From the IMG/VR virus record IMGVR_UViG_2667527895_000005: a DNA stretch of 6,041 nt; one strand, given 5' to 3'. Below are positions 973 through 2,709 of the stretch, one piece after another (within the stretch, counting starts at the first letter, position 1; the number at the start of each line of letters is the position of its first letter). The notes beneath the pieces are model-generated. The model was not told where the DNA came from. It worked only from the letters and a program-made list of their open reading frames with translations, and searched no databases. The DNA is from a virus. Lineage: Duplodnaviria; Heunggongvirae; Uroviricota; Caudoviricetes. Both the position numbers and the translations under genes were made by a program.

Positions 973-2360
973 CAACTCCAGTATGGCGTAACGATGACCT
1001 TGAAGGCGCTGTCATCGGCGCGTTCTTTCTGCGCGGAGCAGATCCTGAAGTGATGGATATTCTGGCCACACTGCCAGCGGACGTTTTTTCTGTACGAGCG
1101 TATCAGGATATCTATACAGGCATCTGCAGACAGGCCCGTGTTTCAGGAGTGATTGACCCCGTGCTGTTGTGTAATGAGATGCCGGAACTTGCCCCGGTGA
1201 TTACTGATACCGGGCGTAAAACCTGGGTGAAGTCTTCACTGGAGCACTATGTTGCAGCGTTGCGGCGCAATGCCGCACTGCGCGATGCAGAAAAAACACT
1301 GAATGAGGCGCTGCAGAAATTACGTGATGCGCATACCTGTGAAGCAGCTGAAGATGCCCTGAAGGATGCGCAGAACATGATGGTCACACTGTCGACAGGA
1401 AAGGGCGTCATTCAGCCGGTACATATTGATGATGTGCTTCCGGAAGTGGTTGAGCGTGTTGAATGCCGGAATCAGGGGCTGGAGAAATCCAGGACGTTGA
1501 TGACCGGTATTGATGAACTGGACGCAAAAACAGGCGGTATGGAGCCCGGAGACCTGGTATTCATTGCCGCCCGTCCTTCGATGGGGAAAACCGAACTTGC
1601 GCTGGACATCATCGACAAGGTGACTGAGCAGGGGCATGGTGTGCTTCTGTTCACCATGGAGATGGCGAACATCCAGATTGGTGAACGTATGGTGTCTGCG
1701 GCTGGAGGGATGCCAGTATCACGCCTGAAATCTGTGGCTCACTTTGAAGATGAAGACTGGACGCGTTTCTCACAAGGGGTGGGGCGGATGACCGGGCGCA
1801 ATATCTGGATGGTGGACCAGGCGAACCTGGCCATTGATGAGATATGCGCAACAACGAAACACCACCTGATTAAATATCCGGAAACGGCGCTGGTGGTGGT
1901 TGATTATCTCGGGCTGATAAAAACCCGAACCACGGGGCGTCATGACCTTGCCGTGGGTGAAATCTCAAAGGGGCTTAAAGGCCTGGCAAAATCCGGTGGT
2001 TTTCCGTTGATTGCGCTGAGCCAGCTCTCCCGCGGTGTGGAGTCCAGACCCAATAAACGTCCCATGAACTCAGACCTGAAAAATTCCGGAGAAATAGAGG
2101 CGGATGCAGACATCATTCTGATGCTTTACAGGGATGAAGTGTACAACCCGGATACGCAGGCCAGGGGCATCGCAGAAATCAATATCACGAAACAACGTAA
2201 CGGTTCTCTGGGAACGATTTACCGGCGTTTTTATAACGGACATTTTCTGCCTGTGGACCAGGAAAGTGCACGGGTGCTTTCCACTCCCATGAAGCCCGGC
2301 AATCCGCGCAGATACAGTAATAAACGAACTGACAGCAGTAAGATGGAGCGTTTCTTTTGA
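969..2360 (+). CDS. Phage-encoded DnaB-like replicative DNA helicase
   Basis: Seen: 463 aa, length and motif order match DnaB. Walker A region IAARPSMGKTELALD (DnaB: VAARPSMGKT); C-terminal LSQLSRGVESRPNKRPMNSDLKNSGEIEADADIILMLYRDEVYN parallels DnaB LSQLNR...[39 protein letters not shown] at 955-960; ATG 969 overlaps the loader stop. Confidence 0.9.
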   Translation: MTTPVWRNDDLEGAVIGAFFLRGADPEVMDILATLPADVFSVRAYQDIYTGICRQARVSGVIDPVLLCNEMPELAPVITDTGRKTWVKSSLEHYVAALRRNAALRDAEKTLNEALQKLRDAHTCEAAEDALKDAQNMMVTLSTGKGVIQPVHIDDVLPEVVERVECRNQGLEKSRTLMTGIDELDAKTGGMEPGDLVFIAARPSMGKTELALDIIDKVTEQGHGVLLFTMEMANIQIGERMVSAAGGMPVSRLKSVAHFEDEDWTRFSQGVGRMTGRNIWMVDQANLAIDEICATTKHHLIKYPETALVVVDYLGLIKTRTTGRHDLAVGEISKGLKGLAKSGGFPLIALSQLSRGVESRPNKRPMNSDLKNSGEIEADADIILMLYRDEVYNPDTQARGIAEINITKQRNGSLGTIYRRFYNGHFLPVDQESARVLSTPMKPGNPRRYSNKRTDSSKMERFF

Positions 2361-2614
2361 ACAACCAGACAATGACTTTTACCCCTGAACAATTGCGTAA
2401 ACACGCGCAGGAAATGCTGCGTCATGCTGAACAACTCGAAAAAACGGGCATAACAAAAGATGCTATCCGTAAAGATATGGTACCCGCGCTTCGGGAACTG
2501 ATGCAGGCGAAGCATCGCGCACAGAAAGCAGTAGATGAGCTGGTGGACTGTGTGGCAGAGCTGGAAACCAGAGTCGGAAAGTTTGAAAAACTGGTGCAGG
2601 AGGCGCTGCGCTGA
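2357..2614 (+). CDS. Hypothetical small protein (80-85 aa), predicted helical/coiled-coil, nin-region position
   Basis: Seen: ORF in the same orientation and tightly packed between helicase and NinH. TTG 2357 overlaps the helicase stop (TTTTGA) with GGAG at 2346-2349, 7 nt upstream; alternative ATG at 2372 (MTFTPEQLRK...) has no obvious SD. Charged, heptad-like sequence, no TM segment. Family not recognised. Confidence 0.5.
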   Translation: MNNQTMTFTPEQLRKHAQEMLRHAEQLEKTGITKDAIRKDMVPALRELMQAKHRAQKAVDELVDCVAELETRVGKFEKLVQEALR

Positions 2615-2709
2615 TGCGCCATGAGTTTGTTTTGCCCTGGCTTGTGCGCGATCATTATGTCCCTGGTGGAAAGCCCGGGATAAAAATCACCGAACCGGAG
2701 AGTATTTGA
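2614..2709 (+). CDS. Possible micro-ORF (31 aa, MRHEFVLPWLVRDHYVPGGKPGIKITEPESI), hypothetical
   Basis: Seen: ATG 2614 overlaps the upstream stop (TGATG) and its TGA 2707-2709 overlaps the ninH ATG 2709-2711. AGGAGG at 2598-2603 lies 10 nt upstream. Too short to call by homology; could equally be a translational-coupling spacer or the remnant of a deleted nin gene. Confidence 0.3.
   Translation: MRHEFVLPWLVRDHYVPGGKPGIKITEPESI

Follow-up and report, generated by a model that had tools for sequence, protein, structure and literature searches.

The DNA analyzed here is a stretch of 6,041 nucleotides (nt) from a virus of the class Caudoviricetes (IMG/VR record IMGVR_UViG_2667527895_000005), which we call the window. 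It is a piece of lambdoid prophage that runs from the early-right genes to the lysis genes, and we identify it as an early-right/late-control segment of a phiP27-like lambdoid prophage of Escherichia coli/Shigella. Our subject is its nin-equivalent region, between the last replication gene and the late antiterminator gene Q, and in particular two small open reading frames (ORFs) in that region: one of 85 amino acids (aa), here named ORF85, and a micro-ORF of 31 aa. We consider it very probable that ORF85 is a real, conserved gene of the L20/phrog_2565 family, and that the micro-ORF is a dead rusA gene that lost 264 nt in one event. The features of the region are these:

969-2360, plus strand: DnaB-type replicative helicase (PF03796, 3e-72; PF00772), last of the replication genes, bordering the nin-equivalent region on its left
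2357-2614, plus strand: ORF85 (phrog_2565; WP_001064799)
2598-2603, plus strand: Shine-Dalgarno (SD) sequence AGGAGG, inside the 3' end of ORF85 and 10 nt before the micro-ORF ATG at 2614
2614-2709, plus strand: micro-ORF (31 aa), apparently composed of the following two rusA stumps
2614-2641, plus strand: putative rusA 5' stump, the first 9 codons (MRHEFVLPW) and 1 nt; 23 of 28 nt identical to the start of rusA in E. coli GB089
2642-2709, plus strand: putative rusA 3' stump, the last 22 codons (LVRDHYVPGGKPGIKITEPESI) and the stop; 42-48 of 68 nt identical to four rusA alleles
2709-2909, plus strand: ninH (PF06322, 3.6e-26; RefSeq annotation)
2902-3282, plus strand: late antiterminator Q (PF06530, 5.8e-54; phrog_79; RefSeq), the right border of the region

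All of these ORFs are present where a preliminary description of the window had placed them, and the stop/start overlaps that it reported from the helicase through to Q can be read from the sequence. The helicase stop codon (TGA, 2358-2360) overlaps the TTG start of ORF85 at 2357, giving TTGA; this overlap holds only if TTG is the start, and the alternative ATG at 2372 (80 aa, as annotated in phiP27) does not overlap the helicase stop. The TTG has GGAG 8 nt upstream, and it is favored because distant homologues keep 7-9 residues ahead of a conserved TPE motif. Further along, TGATG at 2612-2616 combines the ORF85 stop with the micro-ORF start, TGATG at 2707-2711 combines the micro-ORF stop with the ninH ATG, and the ninH stop (2907-2909) and the Q ATG (2902) lie in an 8-nt overlap. 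The AGGAGG described as a good SD for the micro-ORF is indeed there with its 10-nt spacing, and ninH has an SD of its own (GGAG, 2697-2700) within the rusA 3' stump, 8 nt before its ATG. The window holds 78 ORFs of at least 25 aa, and given that number a 31-codon ORF by itself means little.

What the micro-ORF is becomes apparent when its two ends are considered separately. At the protein level, MRHEFVLPW aligns with residues 1-9 of the Holliday-junction resolvase RusA, and its EFVLPW is identical in the RusA of PhiR5_2/G1_2, while LVRDHYVPGGKPGIKITEPESI aligns with the last 22 residues of four RusA alleles. The latter segment also aligns with the C-terminus of what we take to be the RusA sequence of E. 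coli K-12. At the DNA level, a megablast match to E. coli GB089 extends from ORF85 into the annotated RusA gene of that strain and ends at window position 2636, and blastn matches to PhiR5_2, Shigella phage 75/02 Stx, and POCJ13 begin at 2677, inside the rusA 3' end, and continue through ninH. When the micro-ORF is aligned with the intact rusA of GB089 and PhiR5_2, both ends find their place and one clean gap of ~264-267 nt separates them. Stump identity was anchored at the start codon for the 5' 28 nt and at the stop codon for the 3' 68 nt; none of 20000 shuffles reached the anchored 3' match, and no other offset along any of the genes did better than the anchored one.

The missing block amounts to 264 nt (88 codons), in frame, from a RusA gene of ~120 codons, and covers the PPDxRRRDLDN…DD region with R69, D70, D72, K76, and D90/91. 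Of these residues, D70, D72, K76, and D90/91 are critical for catalysis and R69 for DNA binding (PMC1636454). Judged from its sequence, a stump peptide in which none of the catalytic and DNA-binding residues of RusA is left cannot be a resolvase. Searched against Pfam at E ≤ 1, it gave zero matches, PF05866 included; intact RusA from GB089 and PhiR5_2 matches PF05866 at 5e-15 and 9e-17. It likewise matched no Pfam, PHROG, or NCBIfam family, and searches of PADLOC and PDB sequences were also empty. Set beside RusA (PF05866; E. coli DLP12 RusA and the phage 82-type rusA), the micro-ORF shares the first 9 and last 22 codons, the rusA ribosome-binding site, the TGATG with the upstream L20-type gene, and the stop/start junction with ninH; it differs in the absence of the 88 codons with the residues listed above and in having no Pfam match. 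Descent from rusA is apparent, core homology to the family is absent, and we read the micro-ORF as a pseudogene remnant and not as a member of the RusA family.

The synteny comparison that the preliminary description had proposed as a way of finding a deletion scar gave the answer. ORF85 is followed by rusA in GB089 and many other genomes, and the order rusA-ninH(-Q) is common, being seen in PhiR5_2, G1/2, and RM9088. The TGATG start junction after an L20-type gene and the stop junction with ninH are the usual rusA junctions, and in the alignment the intact rusA of GB089 is preceded by the same AGGAGG. Coupling at both ends had been put forward as an argument against a random frame. In part this stands, as the coupled ends are not a product of chance, because they were inherited from rusA; the remainder does not, since they are rusA's own start and stop and imply no peptide function. 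The good SD has the same origin, and therefore neither it nor the coupling says anything about what the peptide might do.

These very signals could also be taken for those of a genuine micro-protein gene, or of a coupling ORF for ninH/Q, whether independent or exapted from rusA, that is under selection. The good SD with 10-nt spacing and the stop/start overlaps at both ends would fit such a gene, as would the in-frame deletion and the fact that some gene callers annotate the 31-aa peptide. We regard this explanation as very unlikely: both ends are rusA-homologous at rusA's own junctions, so that SD and coupling come with the ancestry; an in-frame result is a matter of one-in-three luck; no Pfam, PHROG, or NCBIfam family takes in the peptide; and ninH is equipped with a GGAG of its own, 8 nt before it, and in other phages comes after a full-length rusA. 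Moreover, there is zero variation among at least 1000 contigs, and because of this selection on the 31-aa peptide cannot be shown.

The distribution of the scar is uniform. It occurs identically (100% identity) in 9 of 5426 complete E. coli genomes, and also in E. coli ECMA0423, S. flexneri SFBU1023, and one metagenome contig; at least 1000 contigs carry the exact 31-aa peptide, whose cluster contains no sequence variants. Because all copies are identical, we infer one event, spread clonally or with the prophage. The peptide has already been deposited as a hypothetical protein (AKK56826.1; UniRef A0A377HFC3), and the Prokaryotic Genome Annotation Pipeline (PGAP) and RefSeq leave the stretch unannotated. 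Rather than an unrecognised small gene, as had been suggested, DNA, protein, and anchored alignments reveal two rusA ends joined in frame. It follows that a Holliday-junction resolvase was not "replaced" in this prophage: rusA was present and was then deleted.

The event itself would be either an internal deletion or the illegitimate join of two rusA alleles, and our comparison of sequences cannot distinguish them. In the latter case, the stump would be an inter-phage joint at non-equivalent positions of rusA, with one donor carrying helicase-L20-rusA 5' and the other rusA 3'-ninH-Q. The flanks have something to say for it: on the left, the window is 99% identical to E. coli RMDEC332 up to 2618 and ~91% identical to GB089 up to 2636, and on the right, from 2677, it resembles the PhiR5_2/G1_2 lineage at ~83%. 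Among the rusA types, that of GB089 comes closest to the 5' stump (23/28), and that of RM9088/G1_2 is the best match for the 3' stump (48/68); lambdoid phages, moreover, are mosaics. However, the 5' stump also contains PhiR5-type bases (CCCTGG) and the 3' stump GB089-type bases (TTGTGCGCG), a single unsampled rusA allele fits the data equally well, and neither kind of parental genome came to light. An inter-phage joint is accordingly possible, although we doubt it.

Under the reading that we prefer, of the micro-ORF as a dead rusA, one event would have taken 264 nt from the middle of the gene and fused its first 9 and last 22 codons in frame. The remnant would retain the rusA ribosome-binding site, the TGATG with the upstream gene, the stop overlapping the ninH start, and the ninH SD. 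Because the ribosome-binding site and the overlaps are kept, ribosomes that have translated ORF85 can probably continue through the stump to ninH and Q.

ORF85, the other small ORF, had also been described as unrecognised, which it is not. It is identical to RefSeq WP_001064799 ("hypothetical protein"), belongs to the phiP27 L20 family (phrog_2565), and is a homologue of phiP27 L20 itself (P27p20, NP_543072). The two share ~93% aa identity, length (with the TTG start), the place after the DnaB helicase, and the TGATG junction to the next gene. That next gene is Q in phiP27 and here the rusA stump, followed by ninH-Q; otherwise there is no essential difference. At the nucleotide level, ORF85 is 89.5-90.8% identical to phiP27 and to phages encoding Shiga toxin (Stx) 1a, in which an annotated hypothetical gene lies between helicase and Q. 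It matches phrog_2565 at 2.7e-32 and phrog_2539 at 1.4e-17, both of them hypothetical families, and the matches are limited to the C-terminal ~80 profile positions (121-202 of 204 and 153-227 of 229, respectively). The family is present in hundreds of E. coli genomes and in several Stx phages, and close relatives of ORF85 abound in E. coli, Shigella, E. albertii, and E. marmotae. A phmmer search, exhaustive over 1.84 billion representatives, returned only 33 clusters at 50% identity. In the literature, we found no paper that mentions P27p20, WP_001064799, or phrog_2565.

The preliminary description was right that ORF85 matches no nin product. Against all 24 lambda/P22 replication-to-Q proteins, BLASTP and the family profile gave nothing significant, the profile scoring at most 2.1 bits to any of them; ORF85 has no counterpart in these two phages. 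P22 NinZ was considered as a relative, on the sole BLASTP hit, a 30-aa stretch with an E value of 0.012 in this 24-sequence database, and was dropped as the family profile gave it no backing. Family searches with ORF85 covered Pfam, NCBIfam, PADLOC, and PDB sequences. Weak, composition-driven coiled-coil matches (BLOC1_2, WXG100, the ZorA tail, and designed helical proteins) were rejected as non-homologous.

Relative to phiP27, ORF85 carries 25.5 synonymous and 5.5 nonsynonymous differences, a nonsynonymous-to-synonymous rate ratio (dN/dS) of 0.04, which marks it as a real gene under strong purifying selection. With the profile match and the location between replication genes and Q, this coding constraint places it in phrog_2565. 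The constraint also bears on the idea that ORF85 is a functionless C-terminal remnant of a longer winged-helix gene (phrog_2539 or long phrog_2565) minus its DNA-binding half. Such long forms, of 170-265 aa, do exist, ORF85 matches just the last 80 positions of both PHROG profiles, and the GB089 copy is frameshifted. Yet a dN/dS of 0.04 over 31 differences is hard to square with a dead fragment; many diverged lineages (35-68% identity) have a stand-alone form, 80-93 aa long, in which K39, P43, and D64 are conserved; and ORF85 has its own start and SD and occurs in hundreds of genomes. We think this idea extremely improbable.

In structural terms, the AlphaFold 2 (AF2) model of ORF85 is a single helix over residues 10-84, with a confidence score (pLDDT, predicted local distance difference test) of 86. 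Residues 9-85 follow a heptad pattern in which 77% of a/d positions are hydrophobic, against 25% elsewhere, a result reached by 1 of 5000 shuffles. With its continuous heptad, hydrophobic a/d positions, and all-helical chain, the predicted protein reads as one unbroken heptad coiled coil. The long relatives (170-265 aa; phrog_2539 and long phrog_2565) have a winged helix and a disordered linker in front of an ORF85-type helix, and their C-terminal 75-80 residues are homologous to ORF85 at 30-57% identity, with the conserved K, P, and D. ORF85 would thus be a stand-alone form of the C-terminal helix that stands behind the winged-helix domain in these proteins. It shares that helix and differs in having neither winged-helix domain nor linker; it therefore cannot bind DNA as the long forms presumably do.

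The long relatives deserve a word of their own. Their winged helix (in loci L008 and L012; proteins P0139, P0143, P0147, and P0153) is PadR/ArsR-like, and the phrog_2539 family is without annotation. The linker often or sometimes carries a CxxC…CxxC zinc ribbon that resembles that of the endonuclease VII/HNH families. A fold search with the long form returned only generic winged-helix matches (PadR, ArsR, Rpc34), at E ≥ 0.025.

Where ORF85 homologues occur is informative as well: they always sit between replication genes and Q. Six further contexts repeat this placement, and the slot was seen in the window, phiP27, RMDEC332, Stx2_112808, loci L009 and L010, Lys8385Vzw, and Hafnia yong2. Upstream genes include DnaB, Phage_GPA initiators, O-like HTH_36, KilA-N, PerC-like/hypothetical, and an N-like gene, and downstream genes are Q, RusA, DUF968-Q, or Dam. 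What stays the same throughout is only the placement upstream of DUF968, Dam, RusA, or Q. The order of L20-family gene, DUF968 (ydfU-like), and Q recurs in otherwise different phages (L009, L010, L012, L019). In E. coli GB089 (L002:2554-2812), the ORF85 homologue is frameshifted and the adjacent rusA intact, the reverse of the window.

The TTGA overlap after the helicase, present here, in phiP27, in Stx1a/Stx2 phages, and in RMDEC332, could suggest that ORF85 is a dedicated partner of the DnaB helicase, a loader or modulator translationally coupled to it. This is unlikely, as homologues also follow Phage_GPA, O-like HTH_36, KilA-N, PerC-like/hypothetical, and N-like genes. Instead of being tied to the helicase, ORF85 is an accessory gene that stands by itself in the replication-to-Q slot. 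With low confidence, we would propose that it acts as a protein-binding or oligomerising coiled-coil accessory factor. A more ambitious proposal, to which we give little chance, is that the L20/phrog_2565 coiled coil is a regulator in many temperate phages upstream of Q, which may heteromerise with a winged-helix protein bearing the same helix or with a host factor. In a weaker version of this regulator reading, the RusA stump would have stayed in frame as its translation is needed to bring ribosomes to ninH and Q.

Several points weigh against our account of a conserved ORF85 beside a dead rusA, and readers should have them together. No intact progenitor rusA was found, either by blastn of the complete E. 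coli genomes or by exact-pattern scans of genome and metagenome contigs; those scans returned scarred copies only, and the best intact rusA-ninH relatives are ~83% identical or less on the 3' side. For want of an intact progenitor, the position of the breakpoint (2641/2642) has an uncertainty of a few nt; in the middle of the stump, 40 nt (2637-2676) have only the weaker anchored alignment behind them. As for ORF85, the frameshift in the GB089 homologue argues against an essential role and indicates that the gene is dispensable for prophage carriage, and the AF2 single-helix model is uninformative on its oligomeric state. Finally, translation of the stump, coupling to ninH, and the function of ORF85 are all matters of inference.

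The region as a whole had been called a minimal nin region. It is very short, but shortness is normal for the phiP27-like architecture: phiP27 and E. coli RMDEC332, the latter 99% identical to the window through ORF85, have helicase, L20, and Q and nothing else. Stx2_112808 has the order helicase, L20, DUF968, Q, and GB089 the order helicase, L20, RusA, DUF1133, and the window differs only by the RusA stump and ninH. A short nin region is typical of phiP27-like phages, and what we see is ordinary prophage mosaicism and decay. The nin region of lambda (ren, ninB-ninI) occupies the same slot between replication genes and Q, with ninH common to both; the resolvase of this prophage belonged to the RusA type and not to Rap/NinG. 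NinH scores 91.3 bits against a Pfam gathering cut-off of 29.8, which places it in its family, and is 59% identical to lambda NinH and 56% to P22 NinH.

A promoter/terminator consensus scan from helicase to Q gave nothing convincing. With no terminator of note in this interval, expression of Q probably depends on a single, coupled early transcript. In this respect the region resembles lambda nin5, which is likewise without an evident terminator before Q; nin5 is a ~2.8-kb deletion, whereas here native phiP27-like shortness is combined with one 264-nt deletion.

The remaining features of the window are as follows:

1-972: DnaC/IstB-like loader
3369-3395, plus strand: GC-rich hairpin with T-run (aaacccgcc-tccg-ggcgggttttttat), read directly from the sequence
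3499-3905: N-run that masks a tRNA cluster downstream of Q
4125-4340: P21-type holin
4344-4973, plus strand: 209-aa ORF between the P21-type holin and the lysozyme gene, without a Pfam match
5039-5572: lysozyme

Downstream of Q there follow, in order, the hairpin with its T-run, the masked tRNA cluster, the P21-type holin, the 209-aa ORF, lysozyme, and Rz/Rz1. The hairpin at 3369-3395 was missed by the consensus terminator scan; it sits where the late terminator tR' would be, and that role is suggested from its position only. The 209-aa ORF matches phrog_1085 (hypothetical) at 1.2e-73, covering profile positions 117-288 of 296 only, and on that account it may be N-terminally shortened. In S. 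flexneri SFBU1023 (L018:5054-5364), the tRNA cluster consists of tRNA-Met(cat) (Ile according to RefSeq), Arg(tct), Thr(tgt), and Gly(tcc). Against 407 nt for the N-run, the corresponding stretch in L017 and L018 measures 367 nt. An Rfam search of the window found zero RNA families.

Nearly the entire window is 99.4-100% identical to S. flexneri SFBU1023. Positions 2300-3300 have 100% identity to the chromosome of E. coli O121 strain 201805972 and 99.8-99.9% to eight further complete E. coli genomes, and RefSeq labels the helicase "replicative DNA helicase" in identical sequence. In E. coli O121 201805972 (L004, 7786-13001), the same prophage is decayed, with IS911 in the lysis cassette and a truncated large terminase gene.

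For those who annotate such prophages, the matter is mainly one of labels: a 96-nt stretch that is blank in RefSeq and a "hypothetical protein" elsewhere should read rusA remnant. When a gene loses its middle, its two ends can be left stitched together as a micro-ORF that is well coupled and has a strong SD, and so coupling by itself does not count as evidence for a new gene. The architecture of the region is known, and it combines a known hypothetical-protein gene with an unannotated pseudogene remnant, not a new gene pair. The prophage lineage that bears the scar has lost its Holliday-junction resolvase, and the remaining point of interest is the role of the widespread, conserved L20/phrog_2565 coiled coil, a putative accessory protein, in the replication-to-Q slot.

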